Of a DNA stretch of 64,000 bases, positions 2,668 through 59,234 are shown one piece after another. The notes under the pieces were generated by a model. It was not told the origin of the DNA, ran no database searches, and worked only from the letters and a program-made list of their open reading frames with translations. This DNA is from an uncultured Gammaproteobacteria bacterium (GTDB lineage: Bacteria; Patescibacteriota; Microgenomatia; Daviesbacterales; UBA10151): assembly GCA_964636275.1 (NCBI GenBank), contig CAZWRN010000001.1, positions 107,724 through 171,723 of the forward strand, read 5' to 3'. Each line of letters begins with the position of its first letter. Position 1 is the first letter of the stretch. A program made the translations under genes and the position numbers.

Positions 2668-3279
2668 ATGGACGCTGAAAGAAAAAGTTTAGTTGCTACC
2701 GCTTTAGTTGGTTTGGTGGTACTGGCAATTATTGTTGGTTCCATTTATTATTTAATCCAATTTATTCGCAATCGAAATACAACCAATGTAGCAAACAATC
2801 AAGTTGAAGTGAGTGCCTCACCTGTAGCTAGTGGAGGGGTAATAGTTTCACAGGGTGAAAATACCAACCAACCTACCGGTGATGATAAATCTTACAATGC
2901 TGGAGATTTCCAGATTGCTTATCCTAAAAATTGGGGAGTTTTGACTTGTTCAAACTCTTCTAATATTGAGCTAGATCCAACCAATGGTCAGGACAATCTA
3001 AAAGTGGCTTGTTCTACAGCTGTAAAGCCAGTTACTATCATCAAGGATGCTACCGGCTGTGCCAATGGTGAAATGATTGATGTGGGTTCATTTAAAGTTG
3101 TCCGAACTAAAGCTACTGAAGGTGGATACACTCGTTATGAATGGTGCACAAAAACAGTACCAGCTTTGTATATTACTCACCGAGTTTCCAATGACGGATC
3201 TCCTGCTACTTCAAAAGATGATTTTTCCAAACAGGTCGAAGATCTGATCATGAAGCTGACCTTCGCTCGTGGTTCCTAA
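2668..3279 (+). CDS. hypothetical N-terminally anchored exported protein (tandem paralog 1 of 3)
   Basis: N-terminal TM helix; shares 'D(D)KSY...YP.NW/YPEN' motif with the next two ORFs. Confidence 0.45.
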   Translation: MDAERKSLVATALVGLVVLAIIVGSIYYLIQFIRNRNTTNVANNQVEVSASPVASGGVIVSQGENTNQPTGDDKSYNAGDFQIAYPKNWGVLTCSNSSNIELDPTNGQDNLKVACSTAVKPVTIIKDATGCANGEMIDVGSFKVVRTKATEGGYTRYEWCTKTVPALYITHRVSNDGSPATSKDDFSKQVEDLIMKLTFARGS

Positions 3280-3325
3280 TTTCCCAACTCTATACTACCT
3301 ACTAAATACAATATATACTAATATC

Positions 3326-3901
3326 ATGCGTGGTTTTTCTAGTGTATTGTTAATTTTTATTGTCCTTCTGATGGGATTAGGAGTTGTCAGCTACTTTTTT
3401 TATAAACAACAACCAATTTCAGATATTCAGCAAATAAATCCCTCACCTATGATTTCTGAAAGCCCGTCCGTATCTCCTGTAAAGAATGAACAAATGGTCG
3501 ATGATGGTAAATCTTATACTTCAAAAGGTCATCTGTATACTTTTAATTACCCAGAAAACACTCAGAAGGATTTAAAAGTCGGGTGTGGAGGGCCTAAAAT
3601 TAGTCGCGGAAACAGTCAGATTATTGTTTGTGATTATGGTTATGGTGCATCTTCGGGTGCAGCAGAATTAGCAAAAATGTTTAGTCAGGGTAGAAAAGTT
3701 ATTAGCTCAAATGAGGCAACTGTATCAGGTGTTATTGGAACAAAGCTAGTTGTTGATGCTGATGGGAAAGAAGCGACATATTTGTTGTTTGATTATGATA
3801 AAGCCAAAAATGGACAACCTGTGACTGTGAGTATATATTTTTCTGGAGATGATAAAGAGTTGTTAGATGAAGTAATCAAAAGTTTTCAATTTATTCGTTA
3901 A
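3326..3901 (+). CDS. hypothetical exported protein (tandem paralog 2)
   Basis: ATG at 3326 (MRGFSSVLL..) followed by TM helix; 'DDGKSYTSKGHLYTFNYPENTQ' motif shared with neighbours. Confidence 0.45.
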   Translation: MRGFSSVLLIFIVLLMGLGVVSYFFYKQQPISDIQQINPSPMISESPSVSPVKNEQMVDDGKSYTSKGHLYTFNYPENTQKDLKVGCGGPKISRGNSQIIVCDYGYGASSGAAELAKMFSQGRKVISSNEATVSGVIGTKLVVDADGKEATYLLFDYDKAKNGQPVTVSIYFSGDDKELLDEVIKSFQFIR

Positions 3902-4522
3902 ATGCAAAAAGGATTTTCAGTATTGATGTTGGCTTTTCTTGTAGCAATACTGGCCTTGCTGGGCGGGGGGGGATATTATTTTCTTCATCAGCAAAAAATT
4001 GCTTCCATAAATTCATTTGCAGAGTGTAGCCAATATTTTACTGCTGTCGATAATGGGGATGAGCTTAATTGTGATACTCCCAGACAGCGCTTTTCTAAGC
4101 CTGATTTGGAGGAGGTGCCAACTTTACCAGAAGCTTCAATATCTGCCTCTGAGCGAAATCCTGGATGGGTAATGTTTTCAGGTCACACTGCTTATGGTGG
4201 TGAGAAAAAGTTTTCTATAGAATACCCCGGTGAGTGGTATCGGGAAGGTAGGGTTTTATATCCGGATGGTAAAGATGCAGAGTTTAGAGTTTGGCTTGGA
4301 AGTGGTGGGAGAGGAATGGCGGAGCATATAACATCACGGATGGTGAAAAAAAGTTTTAATGGAATTGAAGCGCGCTATTATTGGGATAAATCGCTAGGAT
4401 ACGCTTCCTTTAGCATTGAGAATATTGCCTATATTTTTGAATTTGTGGATATTCCTGAAGGGGAAAATGCTTATTATGAGAAAATTTTTATCAAAATGCT
4501 TAATACTTTTAAAAAAATCTAA
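3902..4522 (+). CDS. hypothetical exported protein (tandem paralog 3)
   Basis: N-terminal TM helix; 'KFSIEYPGEWY' motif; directly abuts paralog 2. Confidence 0.45.
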   Translation: MQKGFSVLMLAFLVAILALLGGGGYYFLHQQKIASINSFAECSQYFTAVDNGDELNCDTPRQRFSKPDLEEVPTLPEASISASERNPGWVMFSGHTAYGGEKKFSIEYPGEWYREGRVLYPDGKDAEFRVWLGSGGRGMAEHITSRMVKKSFNGIEARYYWDKSLGYASFSIENIAYIFEFVDIPEGENAYYEKIFIKMLNTFKKI

Positions 4523-11539: not shown

Positions 11540-12199
11540 ATGCCGATTATTTTATTTCATGGAAATGGTTTGACTGCAATATCAAGAGCTGTTTCAGCTT
11601 GGCGAGCAAAATTTGACCCGCTAGCTATAAGTGAATTTAATGGGAAAAATCAGTCGATAGAACAGGCAGCTATGGGCATAGGGACGATGGATTTATTTTC
11701 AGATGCTAGATTGGTAATTTTGGAAAATTTCAATGAAAAAACTGATCTGTCATTATTAAAGTCCGATGCTACTACGACGGTATTAATCAGGGCCCAAAAG
11801 CCACTTTCAGCAACCACCTTAATGTTAAAATCGGCCAAAGCTCTAAACGCTCAAATACAGGAGTTTTCTGAATCAGATGAAGTCTCAATATTTCCTTTTT
11901 TGGATCTTTTAGGAGAAAAAAAACAGTTTGCATATACACAGCTGGAAAAAGTATATGCCGAATACGGAGGGCAATATATATTAACTATGTTGTATTATTT
12001 CTATCGACGAATGTTAATAAATCCTGACAAAATGTCGCCCTATATGGTCAAAAAACTTCAAAAGCAGAAAGATAATTTCCCAATTGATAAAATTAAACAA
12101 CTTTATAAATTCACTTTAGAAACTGATTTCCAAATCAAGTCAGGTCTTATTGATGAACGTATAGGATTAACACTTATTGTAAATAAGATATTAGATTAG
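11540..12199 (+). CDS. holA: DNA polymerase III delta subunit (short form)
   Basis: N-terminal 'ILFHG.' and C-terminal 'TDFQIKSGLIDERIGLTLIV' resemble the HolA N and C domains. Only 219 aa. Confidence 0.5.
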   Translation: MPIILFHGNGLTAISRAVSAWRAKFDPLAISEFNGKNQSIEQAAMGIGTMDLFSDARLVILENFNEKTDLSLLKSDATTTVLIRAQKPLSATTLMLKSAKALNAQIQEFSESDEVSIFPFLDLLGEKKQFAYTQLEKVYAEYGGQYILTMLYYFYRRMLINPDKMSPYMVKKLQKQKDNFPIDKIKQLYKFTLETDFQIKSGLIDERIGLTLIVNKILD

Positions 12200-13152
12200 A
12201 GTGTTGTTAATAACAGGTCAGAATCTTTCTTATCTATAAAACCATCTTTGTTTAAATCAGATTTTTTCATTTCAGAGGTACTGTCATTTGCAACTTGTTT
12301 GCCATCATTTTGAGTGATGATAGCCAGATCTAGTGAATTTATTTTCCCATCACTATTGAGATCATAGGGGTTGGAAGAGTTAGAATTTTGTTGAGAATCC
12401 AATTCTGGTAATACTCCTTTAAGATTGATGTTTTGACCAATTGTTAATGGTGGTAGTAGGGTTGATTCCCCAATTGGTAAATTCAATTCAACTTGTGACT
12501 GCAAAGAACCCTTTTTAATTATGATTAATGCCGGAGTATTTTTTTCAATTAGAAAGGGAGCTGATAAATCGCTTGTTCGAAGTTCTTTAAGTGGGATAAT
12601 AAAATTTCCAGCGGTGCTAGTAAATGTCGTCATTTCAGATGCCCCATCTATATGAAGAGTGACCAGCGCTTCATCAATCGGATTGAGATTGGTATTTAAC
12701 ACACTACCACGAAGTGGTTTATTGGGTGTTGAATTTTCCAAAAAATTTGCCGTTTTAAAAGATAAGGCATTTTCGGGATATTTGACCCCATTTGCAAGAA
12801 CTTGATAATAATAATTTGTCTCTGGTTTTAGATTACGCAATGTTACGAAGTGAACCTGTCGATTTCGAGATTCTTTATTGTCTCGATTGTCGTTGGCAAT
12901 TTCAGTTAGCTGATTATTTGTTCCATATGCGACTTGTCCGAGCGTTGGTGTTTCAGTCCACCAAGTAATGGTTACCTGATCAGCTAATACATTTGTGATC
13001 AAGATCTCTGTTGGATTGTATAGAGTCCTATGTTTGTTTGATATATTTTGCTGATAAAAATACAGAAATATCCCTAAAATGAGGGCAGTTATAAGAAGTG
13101 AAAGCCCCAAAAGTGTGGGTATTTTGGTGGTTTTATGTCCAACAAACTCCAT
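12196..13152 (-). CDS. N-anchored surface protein with FN3/purple-acid-phosphatase-N-like domain and dockerin-type Ca-binding repeats
   Basis: 'VTITWWTETPTLGQVAYG...NYYYQV' FN3-like; C-terminal 'DLNSDGKINSLDL' and 'DLNKDGFIDKKD' dockerin/EF-hand-like repeats. Last gene of the pilN/pilO operon. Confidence 0.5.
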   Translation of the reverse strand: MEFVGHKTTKIPTLLGLSLLITALILGIFLYFYQQNISNKHRTLYNPTEILITNVLADQVTITWWTETPTLGQVAYGTNNQLTEIANDNRDNKESRNRQVHFVTLRNLKPETNYYYQVLANGVKYPENALSFKTANFLENSTPNKPLRGSVLNTNLNPIDEALVTLHIDGASEMTTFTSTAGNFIIPLKELRTSDLSAPFLIEKNTPALIIIKKGSLQSQVELNLPIGESTLLPPLTIGQNINLKGVLPELDSQQNSNSSNPYDLNSDGKINSLDLAIITQNDGKQVANDSTSEMKKSDLNKDGFIDKKDSDLLLTTL

Positions 13153-13502
13153 TATTGGCTTCCTCCTGGCACGGCAGATGCTGATGCATTGACCGGAATT
13201 AATCCTGAAGGGAAAGGTAGTGGTGTAGCAACCGGACTGACTGTCGGTTGAGCTGAACGGGTTGAATTATTGCTAAACCTATTTTTTCCGGTGGATGAGA
13301 TGGTCAATTCTTCTACTGGAGTGACCTCTTTAATCTGGTCTATTACCTTAGAATCAAAATTGGGATTTAATGGAGATAAAAGTGTAGAGAGTTTTGGATT
13401 TACTTCGATACTTGGTCTGGTATGGATAATATCTGCAATAATCCAAATTATTATGACCACAAAGGTGACGATGATAACTATTAAAAATTGTCGGTTATTC
13501 AT
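13152..13502 (-). CDS. small N-anchored Pro-rich protein (pilus-operon member, PilP-like position)
   Basis: TM helix then Pro/Ser-rich tail; translationally coupled (ATGA overlaps) to flanking genes. Confidence 0.35.
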   Translation of the reverse strand: MNNRQFLIVIIVTFVVIIIWIIADIIHTRPSIEVNPKLSTLLSPLNPNFDSKVIDQIKEVTPVEELTISSTGKNRFSNNSTRSAQPTVSPVATPLPFPSGLIPVNASASAVPGGSQ

Positions 13503-13503
13503 A

Positions 13504-14106
13504 TTAATTTTTTAAATAATAGGCCTTTGCATTTACCACCATTAAAATCATACCTCCATCGAGACGGTTCATACTGATTGATTTAATACTAATTAAACGC
13601 TCAATCTTCTTTAAACTCTCAAGAATTCCACCCAGCTGGTTGTAAGTGCCTTGGATACTAAAAGAAAGTTCGGCTTCTTGAATAGCTGCGGTTTTATTAG
13701 GATTTGTATTTAATGGTTCCAAAGTGACCGGTTGAAATTGTATTCCTGCCACTGTGGCTTCATACCGAGTTATAAGAGAGCCAAGTACAGCTGATATTAC
13801 GGGTAAGTCTGGTTGATTGGGGATTAGATTGGTCAGCTTGGTTTTTACACTGGGGTCAAGTGATTCATAATTAGCTCTCCCTTTAGCTAAACTTTCCCGT
13901 TTTTCCACTACACTTGTCAGGATATTTTTCTGCTCATCAACACTTTTTTGTAGTGCAAGTATTGTTATTACTGTTGGTCTGATGGCATATAATGCAAAAA
14001 TAGAGATAGCTATTAAATTGAAAATTGTAGTTGCATAAGAACGAACAAATTTATTTCTTGCTATTGGCTTAACATAAGTATAGTAGCGTGAGTATTTTGA
14101 CTGCAT
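13504..14106 (-). CDS. PilO-like type IV pilus assembly protein
   Basis: Single N-terminal TM, coiled-coil, C-terminal alpha/beta domain; size and architecture typical of PilO; adjacent to the PilN-like gene. Confidence 0.45.
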   Translation of the reverse strand: MQSKYSRYYTYVKPIARNKFVRSYATTIFNLIAISIFALYAIRPTVITILALQKSVDEQKNILTSVVEKRESLAKGRANYESLDPSVKTKLTNLIPNQPDLPVISAVLGSLITRYEATVAGIQFQPVTLEPLNTNPNKTAAIQEAELSFSIQGTYNQLGGILESLKKIERLISIKSISMNRLDGGMILMVVNAKAYYLKN

Positions 14107-14705
14107 TATTTTCGGCGTGCTCCTCCAGATAAACTAAATAAGATTTCTTGTTTATCGTAGTTTAAAGAGTCCAGTGCAATATCTTTAAATAGTTTATTAC
14201 CTTGTGCATCCTGTAGGTTACGCAGTTTTTTTATAAATAGGCCTAAATCGTTTACAGAAGTTGTCTGACCAGAAAGTTTGATGCCTAGATATTCATTTTG
14301 ACCGTCGTTTGAATCTAGATTCAGACTGTTTATCCTGACACTGGGAGGTATTTCAGTAGATAAATTATTAAAGATTCGAGTCCAGTCTGGGGTATTAGCA
14401 TAGACTGTCCCGATAGTTTGTAACTTACTTTGAGTTTGATTTATTAAAGCCTCATCGGCGATCATTCCTTCGATGAAAGGCAGATCTTTGTTGATACTCG
14501 TTTTGATATTGTCCAAATCATAATCGAGTTTAAAGCGGAAAAGGAACGCCGATACGACAATAATTTCGGTAAAGATTACGATATAACGCCCATAAGATAC
14601 AATCCAGCGTAAAAAACGGGTTGGGAGAGATGGTGGGATCTCATTTGGATGAAGTAGATTGAGTTTCAGCCGAAGCTGATTTTTTGGGGCAGCGCTTTTT
14701 GACAT
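14106..14705 (-). CDS. PilN-like type IV pilus assembly protein
   Basis: Cytoplasmic N-terminus with 'KLNLLHP' (PilN 'INLLP' PilM-binding motif), TM, periplasmic domain. Confidence 0.5.
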   Translation of the reverse strand: MSKSAAPKNQLRLKLNLLHPNEIPPSLPTRFLRWIVSYGRYIVIFTEIIVVSAFLFRFKLDYDLDNIKTSINKDLPFIEGMIADEALINQTQSKLQTIGTVYANTPDWTRIFNNLSTEIPPSVRINSLNLDSNDGQNEYLGIKLSGQTTSVNDLGLFIKKLRNLQDAQGNKLFKDIALDSLNYDKQEILFSLSGGARRK

Positions 14706-14822
14706 ACACGAAAACCTCCTTTGGAAAGAAGGCTATATTCATTGTAGATCTTTAAGGATAAAAAGGTAAGATGTTAAGCAGGCATTTAGTAAGTAGTAAG
14801 TAGGGTATGTGTATGGTATATA

Positions 14823-15230
14823 GTGGGGATGCAGATGATAAAAAAAGTGGCTTTGGCTGTATTTAAAGATAAGAAATTGTTGTGTGTCCGTAGTCACAAA
14901 AATGCTGAGGTGTTTTATTGCTTAGGGGGAACGGTGAAAGAGGGGGAGACTGATGAAGATGCATTGCGTAGAGAAGTTAGAGAAGAAGTGGGGTGTGAAG
15001 TTGGCGAACGAATTGAGTTGTTGGAAACGTTTGAAGATTGGGCTCATGGAAAAGAAGACACCATAGTGCAGATTAAATTGTATCGAGCGGATTTGATGGG
15101 CACTCCTCAGCCAAGCTCGGAGATAGCAGAGATCGATTATTTAAATTCACAAACCGATCCTAAAAAATTATCAGCCATTGCGATAAATCAGATGTTCCCC
15201 TGGTTAGAAGGTAAAGGATTCATCGAATAA
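14823..15230 (+). CDS. NUDIX hydrolase
   Basis: Nudix box 'GGTVKEGETDEDALRREVREEVGCEV' (GX5EX7REUXEEXGU). Confidence 0.75.
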   Translation: MGMQMIKKVALAVFKDKKLLCVRSHKNAEVFYCLGGTVKEGETDEDALRREVREEVGCEVGERIELLETFEDWAHGKEDTIVQIKLYRADLMGTPQPSSEIAEIDYLNSQTDPKKLSAIAINQMFPWLEGKGFIE

Positions 15231-15347
15231 CAGGGGTAAAGATATACTTTTTGGACGAATTAATCCTGAATTAACATGAGAAGTTACAAATAAATTATTC
15301 TATATTTAAGGTTGTTTCTCACTCGCTCGAAAAATATTAAGGGATGA

Positions 15348-28270: not shown

Positions 28271-29629
28271 TCAGCGTGAAAAGACGAGGTCTAACAGTTG
28301 GTTGTATTCTTCGGTCATTTGAGCGTATTTTCGGGCTTCATTGGCTTCTGATTCTGAGAAAGTTTCATCTTTTTGGCTTTTAGCCAGGGCTTTAGTAGCA
28401 AAAGCCTTTTGTTCATTTACGATTGTTATCATCCGCTGGATTTTAGTTTGGTCTTTTTCAGATCCTACCCATTGGGGTAAGTTGGAACTTTCCTGATTGA
28501 GATAGGTGAGTTCATCTTGCCAATATTTGATAGCTTCGGCTTTTTCTTCCGGAGTTGTTTTAGCAGGGAGTGGGGTAGCTTTTGTTTTAGGTTGAATGTT
28601 AAGATTTGCTTTTCCTAGCTCCATATATAATTGAGTTTGGTAGCCATCTTTGATAGTTATTGTAATCATTCGGCCGATACTGCCATTTTTTTCTAAAATG
28701 ATTTCATGATCACCGGTGGTTAGATCTTCACTGATAAATGGGGTTTTCCCCACAGGTTTACCATCAATAGTTATTTGTACCTCAGACGGATTGGAAGTGA
28801 TTTTTACCCCTTTTCCTTCAGTTAAACTGATCATTTCGCCGGCATTGACCTCTTTATGGAGATCGCGAGATATGGTCATCATATAGCCCCGAACGAGGGT
28901 TACTGTGCCTTCCCATTCCACCGCATTTGGATCAGTGGTTTTGAGGTTGATTTTATATTCTCCTGGAGCAATTTTTTCATCAAAGTAAGGGGTTTCGCCC
29001 TTTTGTTCACCGTTTATAAAGACGGTAGCTTTTGGTTCAGATCGAATATCCAATCCTGAGGGACGTCTTGATTCCTGGTAATCATCTATAAGCTGGGTAA
29101 AAGATTGTTTTAATGACTCATTGGCCAGAGCCGTTTTGACCGTCTGTTGGCCAAAAAAGACGAGTGAGCCGATGAGACCCAGCAATACAACGAGTCCTAT
29201 GAACCAGTAATTACCAGTTTTTATAACGAGTGATCCGACTGCCTGATCATGCCAGGCTTGTCTTTTATCATTCTTCAAAATTGCCAGATATCCAAATCCA
29301 AAAAGGAGCGAAGAAAACATATACCCAATGGTTTGACGAAACATAATTCGTTTCCAAGCGAGTGTGGTGCCATCCAGGCCAGTAATTTTAATTCCGGTTA
29401 ATAGTTTGCCTAGCGTACCCCCAAACCATCGAGTCATAAAGATCTGATAGAGCAAGCCCACAGGAGAAAGAAGCACCAGAAGTAAAAGAAACAGATTGGT
29501 AACTAATTCTGGAATATCTGCACTTTTAACTGTTAAATTTATAAAATAAAAAGCTATTGCCATCGCAATGAGAGTATCTATAAAAGATGCCTGCAGTCGA
29601 TGGAAAAAGTGAGCTTCTTTATGATTCAT
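28271..29629 (-). CDS. RDD-family membrane protein fused to two PEGA domains and a coiled-coil tail
   Basis: N-terminal RDD domain ('RQAWHD'), TM helices, then 'VFINGEQKGETPYFDEKIAPGEYKI' and 'VQITIDGKPVGKTPF..GDHEIILEKNG' PEGA repeats. Start likely MNHKEAHFF. Confidence 0.55.
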   Translation of the reverse strand: MNHKEAHFFHRLQASFIDTLIAMAIAFYFINLTVKSADIPELVTNLFLLLLVLLSPVGLLYQIFMTRWFGGTLGKLLTGIKITGLDGTTLAWKRIMFRQTIGYMFSSLLFGFGYLAILKNDKRQAWHDQAVGSLVIKTGNYWFIGLVVLLGLIGSLVFFGQQTVKTALANESLKQSFTQLIDDYQESRRPSGLDIRSEPKATVFINGEQKGETPYFDEKIAPGEYKINLKTTDPNAVEWEGTVTLVRGYMMTISRDLHKEVNAGEMISLTEGKGVKITSNPSEVQITIDGKPVGKTPFISEDLTTGDHEIILEKNGSIGRMITITIKDGYQTQLYMELGKANLNIQPKTKATPLPAKTTPEEKAEAIKYWQDELTYLNQESSNLPQWVGSEKDQTKIQRMITIVNEQKAFATKALAKSQKDETFSESEANEARKYAQMTEEYNQLLDLVFSR

Positions 29630-30674
29630 TGGTGTATTTTCCTTTGATTTTGTCGTAGGCGATAGTCCAAACAGAGGCTTTAAAAGCCTGAACAACAGCT
29701 CCAAGTATGACCATGATTGGAATTAAAATAGCTGTAGCAGCCACTGCTAGACCGATCAGCACGGGAGAGATCTCTTTGGTCATAAAGTACCCAATAAAGC
29801 TAGGAGCAATGGCGGCTATTAAAAGGAATACTGGTACCATGGTTACTATGATTGCAGCAAAGGTATTAACAATTCCTAATATCAAAGAGGCGCCCTTTTT
29901 CTTTTTAGCGATCTTAAATCCATTCCAAAAAGCTTGTTTGGCACTTAGATCAGAGATAGCAACTTCGCGATACCCCCAAATAATGCCTACTGAGATCAAT
30001 AAAGCGTAGTAAAGTAGTGGAATGAGTCCAAGAATCCCCAGAACCAATACAATCCCTTTAACTGTGAAATTACCTAAAATCATACCTAATGTAAATAAAA
30101 ATCCATAGATAAAAGCTATGGTAAAAACAATTAACCAAGGAATAATATCTAACCAGATAAAAGACTTAATATGTTTAAAACCAGATTCTGAAGCTTCTGC
30201 GATGGTGGTTTTACTGTGTTTGTAGGCGCTATAAACGCTTTCAATCAAGGAAGCGTGAGCCCAGGCTCGGTAAATGACACTAATCAGAATGCCCACTACA
30301 ATCAGAAATAAAATTTCTCCAGCTAGGATCATGTAATAATGTTTGGGGATTCGATTGAGTATTTCTATCCCCAGTAGCTGAAAAGGACCAATCGAATCTC
30401 CTAGTACCTGAGCCATTTCAGCACTTGAAGAAGCTTCTGGTATTCCTTGGTTGAATAGTTTTTGCAGGCTTTCTGAGTCTCCGCTGGATGATGAGTTGAA
30501 ATTGGAAGAACCAGCAGCGGTGGCTGCGACTGCTGCGCCAAAAATCCAGGTTACTTTATGATTTTTAATGATTTGCCAGGATTTTGAGTAGAGGTCAGAG
30601 ATTTCCCAGTCTTTTTGCGATGGTTTTTCGTCTACTAAGTGAAAATCAGTTTTTTCTTCTTTATCGTCAGACAT
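29619..30674 (-). CDS. polytopic membrane protein (unknown family)
   Basis: About 7 TM helices; acidic cytoplasmic N-terminus; no family motif recognised. Confidence 0.45.
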   Translation of the reverse strand: MSDDKEEKTDFHLVDEKPSQKDWEISDLYSKSWQIIKNHKVTWIFGAAVAATAAGSSNFNSSSSGDSESLQKLFNQGIPEASSSAEMAQVLGDSIGPFQLLGIEILNRIPKHYYMILAGEILFLIVVGILISVIYRAWAHASLIESVYSAYKHSKTTIAEASESGFKHIKSFIWLDIIPWLIVFTIAFIYGFLFTLGMILGNFTVKGIVLVLGILGLIPLLYYALLISVGIIWGYREVAISDLSAKQAFWNGFKIAKKKKGASLILGIVNTFAAIIVTMVPVFLLIAAIAPSFIGYFMTKEISPVLIGLAVAATAILIPIMVILGAVVQAFKASVWTIAYDKIKGKYTNES

Positions 30675-30676
30675 TT

Positions 30677-30776
30677 AATAATAATTTACCAAGAAACAAA
30701 TTCTAAGATACAAACAAAAAAAATTAATTAATTTTCAAATTTTTGGATGACTTGTTGCTTGTATCTTGATCATTAA
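30677..30776. repeat. palindromic intergenic element, copy between divergent membrane-protein and RDD genes
   Basis: Left arm TAATAATAATTTACCAAGAAACAAATTCTAAGATACAAACAA; right arm CTTGTTGCTTGTATCTTGATCATTAA. Confidence 0.55.
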
Positions 30777-30839
30777 CTTAAATGTAGCTGATGATTTGAT
30801 CTGTTGACAAGTAAGCAGTTTTTTGGTCAACTTAGATTA

Positions 30840-31766
30840 ATGCCTAATACTTCTGGGGGTTGGTACAAAGCCACAATCTTACGACGTTTCTTCGCTGTTT
30901 TTATTGATGGTGTCATTATTTCTATTGCTGCTGGTTTATTGACTAGTATCGTTCCACAGGATGCAACGTATCAATCTGGATTCCAATCAGTTATTTCGTT
31001 GCTGGGGTGGTTGTATGCGGTACTTTTTATCTGGCTTAAAGGGGCTACTTTAGGAAAGATGGCGATGGGTATTCAGGTAGTTAAAACCGACGGACGAAAG
31101 CTCAATTTATGGGAGGCTTTTTTACGGGAGGTAATTGGTAAATTTATTTCAGCTATAGTTTTTATGCTGGGATATTTGTGGGTACTTTGGGATAAAAATC
31201 GTCAGGCCTGGCATGATCATATTGCGGGTACCTATGTGGTTACTAAAATCCCGAATGATGGGAAAAATCCTGGTTGTTTGGTGATGCTGATCATTGGAGC
31301 CGTTGCTTTTGTTCCTATTGTAGCTATTTTAGCTGCAGTAGCAGTGCTTGCTATTAATCCCCTAGAACTCACCAGACAGTCTCGTGATGCAGCTCGATTG
31401 AGTGATGGGGCTATCTTGGCTAAAGTAATTAATGAAGAACACATGCAAAATCAAACTGATTTTTGTTCTGGTGCTGCTTCATGCACGGGTAAGTCTAATC
31501 AGGATTCAGCGGTTTTGGACGGAACCGGCTGGGTGAAGATGGTGATACCTGTTTCAGCTATTCCAGATCCTATGAATAAAGGACCAATGCTCCCTATAGA
31601 TCCGATAAATGATGCCACCTATTTTTATACTTATTGTTCAGATGGACAAAATTGGGAGATCGATTTTCAGCTCGAATCAGAGAAATATAAATCCAAAATG
31701 CTTGAGGATGGTGGAGATAGTGATATTTATTATGAAGTCGGTTCGGATATGACCTTGTGTAAATAA
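30840..31766 (+). CDS. RDD-family membrane protein with Cys-containing extracellular C-terminal domain
   Basis: 'RRFFAVFIDGVIISIAAGLL...NRQAWHDHIAGTYVV' RDD domain; ATG 30840 preferred over upstream TTG. Confidence 0.6.
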   Translation: MPNTSGGWYKATILRRFFAVFIDGVIISIAAGLLTSIVPQDATYQSGFQSVISLLGWLYAVLFIWLKGATLGKMAMGIQVVKTDGRKLNLWEAFLREVIGKFISAIVFMLGYLWVLWDKNRQAWHDHIAGTYVVTKIPNDGKNPGCLVMLIIGAVAFVPIVAILAAVAVLAINPLELTRQSRDAARLSDGAILAKVINEEHMQNQTDFCSGAASCTGKSNQDSAVLDGTGWVKMVIPVSAIPDPMNKGPMLPIDPINDATYFYTYCSDGQNWEIDFQLESEKYKSKMLEDGGDSDIYYEVGSDMTLCK

Positions 31767-52321: not shown

Positions 52322-52807
52322 ATGGATACCACCAAAATTGTCGTTGCAGTCGTATTACTCTTTCTTCTAGGAGGCGGGGCTTATTTCTATTTTCAAAATC
52401 AGAACATGAATACAGGTATGACTAATGACTCCATGATGCAGTCAATGGCTCCTCAAGCTTCAGTTATGCCATCTATGAATCCATCTGATCATACTATGAT
52501 GGCTTCCGACTCTGGATCGACTGATTCTCAGGTTAAGGAGTTTGTTGTTGAAGGCAGCAACTTTAAATTTCTCCCGGCAACTATTACCGTAAATAAAGGT
52601 GATACTGTAAAAGTCATTTTTAAAAATACCGGTGGATTTCATGATTTTGTTGTAGATGAGTTTGCAGGTGCTAAGACTAAACAAATAGGTGCCAATGCTG
52701 AGGAAACTATTGAGTTTGTCGCCGATAAAGCTGGTACTTTTGAATATTACTGTTCTGTAGGAAACCATCGAGGGATGGGAATGGTTGGCAAATTGATTGT
52801 TAAATAA
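52322..52807 (+). CDS. cupredoxin (plastocyanin/amicyanin-like blue copper protein), N-anchored
   Basis: Type-1 Cu ligands 'GGFHDF' (His) and 'YYCSVGNHRGMGM' (Cys-x4-His-x2-Met); N-terminal TM. Confidence 0.65.
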   Translation: MDTTKIVVAVVLLFLLGGGAYFYFQNQNMNTGMTNDSMMQSMAPQASVMPSMNPSDHTMMASDSGSTDSQVKEFVVEGSNFKFLPATITVNKGDTVKVIFKNTGGFHDFVVDEFAGAKTKQIGANAEETIEFVADKAGTFEYYCSVGNHRGMGMVGKLIVK

Positions 52808-57020: not shown

Positions 57021-59234
57021 ATGAAATTTCTTGATTCAATTTTAAACTCATTACCAATTCCAAAAAAGAATGAACCTGTAGAGTACTACTTTGGTTTGAA
57101 TATCAGTCCGAGTATGGTGTATGGCTGTGTCTGGGGGATCCGAAGCGGTAAGCTGCATGTACTAAGCTCTTCAAAAACAGTCTATGAATCGGAAAAAGAC
57201 CTGATTGAAGCTGCCAATTATGTTTTGGATGAAGCATTGGCCGATTTTCAGCCTGAACCAGCTAAGATTTTATTTGGTGTGCCGGATGACTGGTTGGCAG
57301 ATGATGATCTGAAGCCGGAATACCTTAAAACATTGAAACAGCTGGTTAAAGAGCTAGATGTAGTCCCGTTGGCTTATGTGGCATCAACCAATGCAATTGC
57401 CCATCTGATAGCGAGGCAGACCGGTGTGCCTTTGACGGCAATATTAGTTCATATTTCTGATCCGGTGACAGTGTCGGTGGTGAAAACAGGCAAAGTTCAG
57501 GGTACTAAGCAGGTTAAAAAGAGTGATCATCTGGCCAAAGATATTGAAAAAGCTTTGATGAATTTTACCGAAGTTGAGGTGATGCCATCTAAGATTATTA
57601 TTTATGGTGATGATAAAGTTGGCAAATACAAAGAAGATCTGACATCTTATGCTTGGATGACACAGTTGCCTTTTTTGCATTTGCCAAAAATTGAGGATTT
57701 GGACCCAGGTATTGTAGTTCAGGCAGTTGCTTACGCCGGAGCTTCCGAGATAGATCCAGAAGTGCATGTCTTATCCCAAAATATTGTTGAGGATGTTAAA
57801 TCAGCTGGTAAAACCAAACCATTACATCTAGATATGGAATCGCATCATGGGCGACATCAAACAAAAGATAAACATGGTCTGGATAATGTGGGTTTTGTGA
57901 CAGGAGATATTGCTGATAAAAATCAGGAGATGCTAATGGAAGATGAAGAGTTGGGCGGAGGAGAAGATGTTGATGTTTATGGTCGGGCTGTCCCAATGCG
58001 TCACAACTCACATTCAGTTAAAGAGTCACATCTATCAGAAGTCCCAGCGTTGTCTGCAGGCTCTAAAATGGGTATGCCGGTCGGTATTTTAGGGCTTTTG
58101 GGTGGAAGTACCAAGCTTTTGATTATCCCGCTTATTTTACTGGTACTGGTTGGGGTTTATCTATATTTCCAAAAGGCAAAAGTGACGGTATTTGTGGACC
58201 TTAAAACAGTGGAGAATACTACCACTGTCACAGCCGACCCTAAAGTGAGTACGGTTGATGAACCAAATAAGATTATTCCTGGTGAAATGGTGTCTGCTGA
58301 GGTTTCAGGAAATGATAAAGGTCAGGCAACAGGTAAAAAACAGGTTGGTGATGCTGCTAAAGGAAAGGTGATTATTTACAATGCGACGGATAAATCATTG
58401 GTAATTGATAAAGGAACGACTCTCACCAATGATAAAGGTCTCAAGTTTACATTGGATGGAAGCGTTCAAGTTGCATCAAAATCGGCTAGTGCGGCTGATC
58501 CCCCGACCAAATCGAGTTTAGTGGACGCAACAGCTGCGGTAATTGGCCCGGATAGTAATATTCCGGCTGGGGGAGATCTGAGTGTGGGTGGGTTTAATAA
58601 GTCTGATGTTGTAGCCAAAGTCGATACTGCATTTAGTGGCGGTGTCTCCAAAGATGTGACTGTGGTCACGGCAGATGATCAAAATAGGCTGTTGGCCAAA
58701 GTATTGGCTGATCTGAAAAAACAGGCAAAAGATGAACTTCAATCAAAAATGACTGGAGATGTCAAAGTATTGGAAGAAGCGTTGAGCGACACTGTTATTA
58801 AAAAGACCTTTTCAAAGAATGTCGGGGATCAAGCTAGTGATTTTACCTTGAACCTGACTGTGAAATTGCTGGGTACATCATATAAAGATAGTGATCTGAA
58901 ATCAATTGTATCCAAATTGGTTCAGGTAGATGTGCCAGCTGGGTATGATCTTGATCTGAGTCAAACTGAAACTCAAGCCGATGTGTCTAAAGTTGAAAAA
59001 GATGGTAGATTGGTTTTTTCGGCTAAATTTAAAGCCAAGCTGATGCCCAAGTTTGATTTAGAACAACTTAAAAAAGATATTGTGTTTAAAAGTGCTTCTC
59101 AGGCAGCGGATAGGTTGAAGCAAATTGAAAATGTTATTGGTTCAGATATTGAATTTAAACCTGATTTACCAGGACCGTTGGAGAGATTACCAATACTGAC
59201 AAAAAATATAGATTTAGAAGTTACAGCTAAATAA
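57021..59234 (+). CDS. bitopic membrane protein: FtsA/PilM-like actin-fold N-terminal cytoplasmic domain, TM, about 360-aa beta-rich extracellular domain
   Basis: N-terminal 'YYFGLNISPSMVYGCVWGIRSGKLHVL' resembles the PilM/FtsA 'GIDIGsssik' phosphate-1 region; TM at about aa 352-384. Confidence 0.45.
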   Translation: MKFLDSILNSLPIPKKNEPVEYYFGLNISPSMVYGCVWGIRSGKLHVLSSSKTVYESEKDLIEAANYVLDEALADFQPEPAKILFGVPDDWLADDDLKPEYLKTLKQLVKELDVVPLAYVASTNAIAHLIARQTGVPLTAILVHISDPVTVSVVKTGKVQGTKQVKKSDHLAKDIEKALMNFTEVEVMPSKIIIYGDDKVGKYKEDLTSYAWMTQLPFLHLPKIEDLDPGIVVQAVAYAGASEIDPEVHVLSQNIVEDVKSAGKTKPLHLDMESHHGRHQTKDKHGLDNVGFVTGDIADKNQEMLMEDEELGGGEDVDVYGRAVPMRHNSHSVKESHLSEVPALSAGSKMGMPVGILGLLGGSTKLLIIPLILLVLVGVYLYFQKAKVTVFVDLKTVENTTTVTADPKVSTVDEPNKIIPGEMVSAEVSGNDKGQATGKKQVGDAAKGKVIIYNATDKSLVIDKGTTLTNDKGLKFTLDGSVQVASKSASAADPPTKSSLVDATAAVIGPDSNIPAGGDLSVGGFNKSDVVAKVDTAFSGGVSKDVTVVTADDQNRLLAKVLADLKKQAKDELQSKMTGDVKVLEEALSDTVIKKTFSKNVGDQASDFTLNLTVKLLGTSYKDSDLKSIVSKLVQVDVPAGYDLDLSQTETQADVSKVEKDGRLVFSAKFKAKLMPKFDLEQLKKDIVFKSASQAADRLKQIENVIGSDIEFKPDLPGPLERLPILTKNIDLEVTAK

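Follow-up and report, generated by a model that had tools for sequence, protein, structure and literature searches.

What is a pilN-pilO gene pair for when it is inherited with neither a pilM gene nor a pilus motor beside it? The question is raised by four genes that run head to tail on the minus strand (A-B-C-D, 14705-12196) in a 64,000-nucleotide stretch of contig CAZWRN010000001.1, which we refer to as a whole as the window and which comes from the Microgenomates, bacteria of the candidate phyla radiation (CPR) with a single membrane. Genes A and B encode members of the PilN and PilO families, gene C a membrane micro-protein and gene D a surface protein with FN3-type and dockerin domains, and the four recur together across the lineage at a distance from other pilus genes. 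We think it probable that this cassette is the extracytoplasmic alignment module of a type IV pilus-type machine, with D serving as its envelope tether and with PilM and the motor encoded elsewhere. The genes, and the element ahead of the first of them, are as follows.

14715..14720, minus strand: Shine-Dalgarno-like AGGAGG, 9 nucleotides 5' of the gene A ATG, read directly from the sequence
14106..14705, minus strand: gene A, PilN-family, 199 amino acids; cytoplasmic N-terminus, one transmembrane (TM) helix, coiled coil and alpha-beta-beta x2 ferredoxin-like domain
13504..14106, minus strand: gene B, PilO-family, 200 amino acids; N-terminal TM helix, with Pfam and profile matches
13152..13502, minus strand: gene C, micro-protein, 116 amino acids; N-terminal TM helix, conserved external motif and variable Pro/Ser/Thr-rich tail
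12196..13152, minus strand: gene D, membrane-anchored surface protein, 318 amino acids, from the open reading frame (ORF) call and Pfam domains

The four ORFs are exactly those of the original prediction, which had also described translational coupling through ATGA overlaps at 14106 and 13152. The two positions are right but the motif is not: both the A/B junction at 14106 and the C/D junction at 13152 read TAATG, so that the last base of the A or C stop codon is the first base of the B or D start codon, and the B/C junction is TAA-T-ATG, with a gap of 1 nucleotide. The stop/start overlaps suggest that the four proteins are made in matched amounts.

Gene A is a member of the PilN family, and a diverged one. 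The PilN-like assignment, which had been proposed from the sequence together with a PilO-like assignment for B, is borne out by evidence from fold, profile and motif. At the level of the profile, 92 of 98 representatives of the A family match Pfam PilN (PF05137) at E<=1e-3, the best at 3.2e-14, and the cassette PilN orthologues of two related loci (L008, L010) do so at E<=1e-5. The family is a large one: among 1.84 billion representatives its profile picks out 1165 clusters (50 % identity); the best 150 representatives of these clusters are 98-255 amino acids long, mostly 175-200. The segments of gene A on which the motif and fold evidence rests are listed here.

14646..14663, minus strand: LNLLHP, residues 15-20, a variant of canonical INLLP, (nearly) invariant in 15 close homologues
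14532..14600, minus strand: predicted PilN TM helix, about residues 36-58, a hydrophobic stretch within the long helix 29-74 of the AlphaFold model
14115..14384, minus strand: PilN extracytoplasmic ferredoxin-like core, residues 108-197

INLLP is the PilN motif for PilM binding known from solved PilM:PilN structures (2ych, 5eou), and it is also the N-terminal consensus of the wider A family, where it is matched strictly by 51 of 98 representatives and by 62 of 98 if one inserted residue is allowed. Gene A has the short cytoplasmic N-terminus of this type, its LNLLHP differing from INLLP by a single residue (H) inserted ahead of the Pro. The AlphaFold model of the protein, built from 15 homologues (predicted local distance difference test score, pLDDT, 74.8), starts with a disordered N-terminus, continues as one long helix (TM and coiled coil) and ends in two alpha-beta-beta units, which is the PilN arrangement of a single TM helix, a coiled coil and a duplicated alpha-beta-beta ferredoxin-like core. 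By structure comparison this fold is common to the periplasmic domains of GspL and GspM. Searches of the PDB by sequence only, with the PilN family profile and with a single PilO protein, returned chance matches (PrgI, E=0.14; a surface antigen, E=0.55), and no NCBIfam model reached its cut-off on any of the four cassette proteins; the structural links described here thus needed structure comparison for A and a wider PilO profile for B.

That gene B belongs to the PilO family is clear from Pfam and from a profile search of the PDB. The protein passes the cut-off of Pfam PilO (PF04350; 30.4 bits, E=5e-7, cut-off 22), 35 of 41 family members match this model, and the profile of these 41 members finds PilO of Myxococcus xanthus (3jc8, 1.6e-12) and of Pseudomonas aeruginosa (2rjz, 2.5e-7), and also 5uvr (1.2e-3), in the PDB. 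Six members also match T2SSM_b, and the NCBIfam GspM model (NF040576) gives 14.3 bits against a cut-off of 60.

The matches to type II secretion components raise a different reading, in which GspL/GspM-like PilN and PilO and a GspC-like D would form a pseudopilus platform that pushes proteins through the wall and builds no long pilus. Both the T2SSM_b matches and the GspL-like fold of A fit such a platform, and GspC-GspL-GspM is likewise a three-part assembly that includes a bitopic beta-sandwich protein. The topology of D, a TM helix followed by beta-sandwiches, recalls that of GspC, which we take to be a point on the same side. There is also a precedent in the monoderm Clostridium perfringens, in which pilM, pilN and pilO mutants show reduced secretion of a matrix protein (PMC11580942). 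We nevertheless regard a secretion platform as improbable: the Pfam and PDB profile matches, like the GspM score, favour PilO over GspM; none of the best 150 A representatives is long enough to carry the fused cytoplasmic domain of GspL; and no pseudopilin, secretion ATPase or secretin is encoded nearby.

Is the four-gene run then a fragment of something larger, as its first description as a partial operon implied? Its conservation says otherwise. Homologue look-ups, a genome scan and a metagenome scan (a 24-sequence alignment subset) gave the order N-O-C-D at about 27 genome or assembly loci and about 40 metagenome loci, some 65 in all, with most junctions overlapping or abutting. The genomic slot is near-constant as well: LepA, MurJ and S20 are followed by the cassette, and in Daviesbacteria the series continues with a convergent holA, LCP and TIM. 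The gene 5' of PilN in relatives is S20, SelR or a PsbP-like protein. N-O-C-D is accordingly a complete, self-contained cassette that occupies the same slot across Daviesbacteria and other Microgenomates. The same data bear on whether the genes are the decaying, non-functional remnant of a pilMNOPQ-type operon, for which the absence of PilM and other core genes from the neighbourhood could be cited. All four ORFs are intact and coupled; the ratio of nonsynonymous to synonymous substitution rates (dN/dS) against a relative of 86-90 % identity is 0.03 for A, 0.12 for C and 0.06 for D, values that are rough because dS is saturated throughout and that for this reason could not be computed for B; and, besides the cassette loci found across a deep lineage, there is the breadth of the PilN subfamily with its 1165 clusters. 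Decay is contradicted by these observations, and we consider it very improbable.

Two observations concern the loci themselves. Records of metagenome-assembled genomes with the cassette and its synteny are often titled 'uncultured Gammaproteobacteria bacterium' (L011-L016, L018, L020-L022, L029, L030, L032), evidently a placeholder or a wrong taxonomic label. In lineages other than Daviesbacteria the same strand 3' of D often carries GT4 glycosyltransferases, PMT_2/PMT-type protein mannosyltransferases and FAD (flavin adenine dinucleotide) amine-oxidase-like genes (in loci L034-L112 and others, for example L048:11750-14992, L089:10200-14576 and L026:13321-14406).

Between B and D, most loci have an orthologue of gene C, of 57-124 amino acids, which belongs to no Pfam or NCBIfam family. 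It had been characterised as a small Pro-rich protein; the small protein is there, while the Pro-rich tail does not define it. The tail, rich in Pro, Ser and Thr, varies among relatives and is missing from versions of 57-58 amino acids, and even the minimal 57-residue proteins have, after the N-terminal TM helix, the pattern PxLxxLLxP(I/L/V)NPNFD, which in gene C is found here.

13353..13397, minus strand: gene C conserved motif PKLSTLLSPLNPNFD, residues 36-50, with the pattern PxLxxLLxP(I/L/V)NPNFD kept in Daviesbacteria-type C proteins

The conserved part of C is the TM helix together with the short motif, and its Pro-rich character is a lineage-specific decoration.

Gene D, which has more than 150 homologues of the same architecture, is made up of the following parts, and the FN3 and dockerin domains that had been read in it are both present.

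13054..13119, minus strand: D N-terminal TM segment, residues 12-33, which opens with the conserved (K/R)IPT(L/I)LG
12778..13014, minus strand: D FN3-type domain, residues 47-125 (Pfam Pur_ac_phosph_N 4.7e-11, fn3 7e-3)
12448..12714, minus strand: D second beta-sandwich, CarboxypepD_reg-like, residues 147 to about 235, the C-terminal limit being inferred
12211..12366, minus strand: D type I dockerin, residues 263-314, with the Ca-binding loops DLNSDGKINSLD and DLNKDGFIDKKD read from the sequence

The profile of the D family matches FN3 domains in the PDB. CarboxypepD_reg on residues 147-188 stays below the Pfam cut-off in D itself (1.2e-3) and reaches 7.8e-7 for the same domain in a relative. 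The dockerin is a type I module that passes the Dockerin_1 (PF00404) cut-off of 22.9 with 34.2 bits (3e-8); no cohesin was matched among the window ORFs scanned with Pfam. The Ca-loop motif is found in 107 of 120 Daviesbacteria-type D proteins, and a C-terminal hydrophobic run in none of the 120, the D of the window likewise having no LPXTG-type signal. The part up to the second sandwich, with its N-terminal helix and FN3 domain, is retained in the longer D proteins (406-515 amino acids) of Amesbacteria and other Microgenomates, and is followed there by a Big_13/Ca-stabilised Ig domain, a stalk rich in Pro and Thr and, at the C-terminus, an LPXTG-like anchor. By eye, all 29 C-termini of this wider type show xPx(S/T)G, about 20 hydrophobic residues and a basic tail, and 23 of the 29 match the strict pattern [LIVMTAY][PAY]x[ST]G; adhesin-like Ig repeats are recognised in 23 members (NCBIfam Ca_tandemer). 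Sortase is near ubiquitous in Microgenomates (PMC6744442). Because Daviesbacteria-type proteins have the dockerin loops and no hydrophobic run, and those of the wider type have the anchor, the C-terminal module of D appears to have been exchanged between two kinds of envelope-attachment device. The suggestion in the original prediction that D might be a host-attachment or surface tether in a presumed episymbiont is strengthened in one half: the idea of a tether is backed by comparison, because the D of relatives ends in an LPXTG-like anchor, and this points to the cell's own envelope. Host attachment gains no support from these data, and the episymbiont lifestyle had been assumed. As a speculation, the Pro/Thr stalk of the wider-type proteins may be a target for glycosylation.

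The opening of the N-terminal helix, residues 12-18 (13099-13119), is strongly conserved as (K/R)IPT(L/I)LG in dockerin-type and anchor-type D alike, with KIPTLLG the consensus of 118 Daviesbacteria-type proteins. Across both types, position 12 is always Pro, and T13, G16 and G27 are each conserved to 90 % or more. Such conservation would be unusual for a mere signal peptide, and it suggests that the helix is kept in the mature protein, where it may make contacts within the membrane.

The family identities of A and B, the domains of D, and the conservation of the cassette and its distance from the other pilus genes are direct findings; from them we infer how the parts would work together and how they would be linked to a working pilus. 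The bitopic PilN and PilO would pair via their coiled coils and ferredoxin-like cores into a membrane-anchored heterodimer. On the cytoplasmic side, the LNLLHP of PilN may be the docking site for an actin-like protein of the PilM type, which in turn would connect it to the PilB/PilC motor, all of these presumably encoded elsewhere in the genome. C would be a lineage-specific single-pass micro-subunit, placed where PilP stands in the gene order. D, at the position of PilQ, would keep its helix in the membrane and extend its FN3 and beta-sandwich domains outward, and its C-terminal module (the dockerin of Daviesbacteria or, in other Microgenomates, the Pro/Thr stalk and LPXTG-like anchor) would be fixed to the envelope and so couple the platform to the wall or S-layer. 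C and D would thus take the places of the PilP and PilQ of diderms in gene order, and perhaps in function.

Several findings weigh against this reading. Gene A itself scores 19.3 bits (E=1.2e-3) against Pfam PilN and does not reach the gathering cut-off of 22.8, and the profile check that the original prediction proposed consequently succeeded for PilO and Dockerin_1 and fell short for PilN. C is not a PilP, which is a lipoprotein with a C-terminal beta-sandwich, because it has neither a lipobox nor a beta domain; it has a TM helix and no folded domain. The term LPXTG-like is used for the anchor of wider-type D because its layout is that of a sortase sorting signal but the NCBIfam LPXTG_anchor model (TIGR01167) detects it in only 3 of the 29 proteins, at best with 6e-4. 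In D proteins from outside Daviesbacteria, a near-invariant Ala stands ahead of SPEETP and could instead mark a signal-peptidase site; if the N-terminus is cleaved in these anchor-type relatives, D would be anchored to the wall like any other surface protein and would not act as a tether. The conserved neighbours of the cassette are cell-envelope genes (MurJ and LCP, with GT4 and PMT_2 in relatives), which would fit a role outside pili as well.

The search for the rest of a pilus, which covered the 64-kb window and the flanks of related loci, adds to these points. No PilM, PilB, PilC, PilT, PilD or pilin was found by Pfam among the roughly 45 other ORFs of the window, as had been anticipated for pilM, pilB and pilC, and regular-expression scans of the window for prepilin motifs and the T2SSE Walker A were negative. 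Within 10 kb of the cassette at 32 loci, the same approach found no PilB Walker A and no prepilin motif. A single FtsK-like match was all that the Pfam and pattern scans for pilus genes returned from the window and the 32 loci. None of the Pfam-scanned genes 3' of D in relatives is PilM, PilB or PilC. On the 5' side, where PilMNOP(Q) operons have pilM directly ahead of pilN, the only neighbour of gene A is a divergent NUDIX gene (Pfam NUDIX, plus strand, 14823-15230, identical contig), as originally described. A fusion of PilM to PilN can be set aside for the best 150 A-family representatives, which are too short. CPR bacteria are enriched in PilB, PilT, PilC, PilM, PilN and PilO, which are widespread among them, and they lack PilQ; in other CPR genomes the pilus genes usually co-localise (PMC6744442), as they do at the Saccharibacteria loci (PMC11623550).

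Two proteins tried as PilM were rejected. One is a 351-amino-acid ORF at 29619-30674, which is a polytopic membrane protein; it is flanked by RDD-domain membrane proteins in the interval 28271-31766 (28271-29704, with PEGA domains, and 30804-31766). The other is encoded 5' of PilN in one relative (L008:7499-8590), where its gene separates S20 from PilN and has the same orientation; this protein of 363 amino acids is extracellular, held by a TM anchor, and gives a weak PsbP_2 match.

A third protein, of 737 amino acids (57021-59234), had been described from its sequence as a PilM-like actin-fold domain joined to a TM segment and an extracellular domain, and that architecture is seen in its AlphaFold model. 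It has no match in Pfam and none by sequence in the PDB. In the model, built from 31 sequences, an actin-like domain, perhaps of the FtsA/PilM kind, is predicted with confidence at about residues 20-245; the linker that follows is disordered and includes a TM helix (365-383), and the portion outside the cell is similar to phage baseplate wedge proteins. In a Foldseek search with the model, ROK kinases rank first. The claim of an actin-like fold therefore appears to hold on the strength of the model, and the protein would be a candidate, and a candidate only, as a partner of PilN.

Given the separation from pilus genes, one may ask whether PilN and PilO have been co-opted for an envelope task that has nothing to do with pili, acting independently of any motor as a scaffold in the membrane for positioning or displaying the wall-linked D, perhaps with a tie to peptidoglycan or glycopolymer assembly. 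At every locus examined the cassette lies apart from pilus core genes, MurJ is nearly always close by with LCP past holA, and GT4, PMT_2 and Wzy_C genes are adjacent in relatives; the adhesin-like Ig repeats of wider-type D point the same way. A precedent exists in the flagellar-motor cage of Campylobacter and Helicobacter, which is reported to be built from PilM/N/O homologues and is, like the cassette, a PilN/PilO-type envelope scaffold encoded apart from a pilus locus (PMC10823254). The two cases differ in that Campylobacter and Helicobacter are flagellated diderms, and flagellar genes are not present here. We know of no flagellar-cage-like structure in CPR bacteria. We hold co-option to be unlikely. 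The INLLP-type motif is kept family-wide and argues for a PilM-type partner in the cytoplasm; the synteny extends to the unrelated housekeeping genes S20, LepA, holA and TIM, so that adjacency to the cassette may merely reflect vertical inheritance; and no direct evidence ties cell-wall synthesis to the cassette. It is a doubtful proposition, too, that in Microgenomates PilN and PilO have been freed from the pilus motor and now form the core of a scaffold of their own, which would span the envelope, would also include the micro-protein and the FN3 protein attached to the wall or S-layer, and could organise cell-surface display or wall or glycopolymer assembly beside MurJ. If true, PilMNO co-option would be known from two cases, the flagellar cage and this one, of which only this one concerns a monoderm CPR lineage.

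Against the systems already known, the alignment module that we favour looks as follows. It shares with the type IVa PilM-PilN-PilO-PilP(-PilQ) operons of P. aeruginosa, M. xanthus and Thermus thermophilus the order of PilN then PilO, the bitopic build of both proteins with coiled coil and ferredoxin-like core, the INLLP-type motif of PilN, and two further envelope genes at the pilP and pilQ positions. It differs from them in the lack of an adjacent pilM, in having for C a TM micro-protein rather than a lipoprotein with a beta domain, and in having for D an FN3/beta-sandwich protein with a dockerin or LPXTG-like anchor that is no PilQ secretin. A secretin would be unexpected because these cells have no outer membrane, and the absence of PilQ is expected for CPR bacteria (PMC6744442). 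With the PilM-PilN-PilO sets of monoderms and CPR bacteria, namely C. perfringens and two loci of the Saccharibacteria TM7x, the cassette has in common the single-membrane envelope, the lack of a secretin and the use of PilN and PilO as accessory proteins in the membrane (PMC11623550, PMC6744442). There, however, pilM, pilN and pilO share their loci with pilB, pilC, pilT, pilD and pilins, whereas the pilN and pilO of the cassette follow MurJ and S20, among housekeeping genes, and have C and D alongside. A further likeness may lie in the Thermus pilMNOWQ operon, whose PilW we take to be, like C, a lineage-specific accessory gene that follows pilO in an alignment operon. PilW works with a secretin, which is absent from the cassette.

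The A and B families are known already, as is the occurrence of PilN and PilO in CPR bacteria. The literature searched (dockerin with type IV pilus and CPR, Daviesbacteria with pili, Microgenomatia with PilM) holds no description of the four-gene unit and no report of a C-like or D-like partner of PilN/PilO. What appears to be new is the unit itself, with its micro-protein and an FN3 protein whose dockerin and LPXTG-like ends are interchangeable, together with its distance from pilM and the motor throughout the lineage. Type IV pili are credited with a central role in host attachment and DNA uptake in CPR bacteria, and for the matter of how a pilus without a secretin crosses, or is fixed in, the wall and S-layer of these cells, C and D are concrete candidates for the missing envelope part. 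Throughout a whole major CPR lineage, pilN and pilO are passed on together but without pilM or the motor genes alongside, so that judgements of pilus "completeness" by gene clustering will miss them. The cassette also raises the question of whether such PilN and PilO proteins still serve a pilus.

The window has a G+C content of about 39 % and carries CPR-typical genes (FemAB, LCP, sortase, MurJ-context genes and others), and the named homologues of D and of one neighbouring protein are from Candidatus Daviesbacteria. A scan for promoters and terminators over 11900-15300 was uninformative, its counts lying within about 2 standard deviations of the shuffled expectation. At 12196-12199 the stop codons of D and of the holA-like gene converging on it (plus strand, 11540-12199) overlap by 4 nucleotides, which leaves no space for a terminator between the two genes. 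ARAGORN found no tRNA or tmRNA gene in the whole window (1-64000). On the plus strand at 2668-3279, 3269-3901 and 3902-4522 lie three tandem genes for proteins of about 205 amino acids, each with an N-terminal TM helix and an extracellular part of no known family; considered as a second PilN/PilO-like set (2668-4522), they were rejected, as they belong to no family and their mutual similarity is confined to the TM region. At 52322-52807, a further gene encodes a small cupredoxin/plastocyanin-like copper protein of 161 amino acids.

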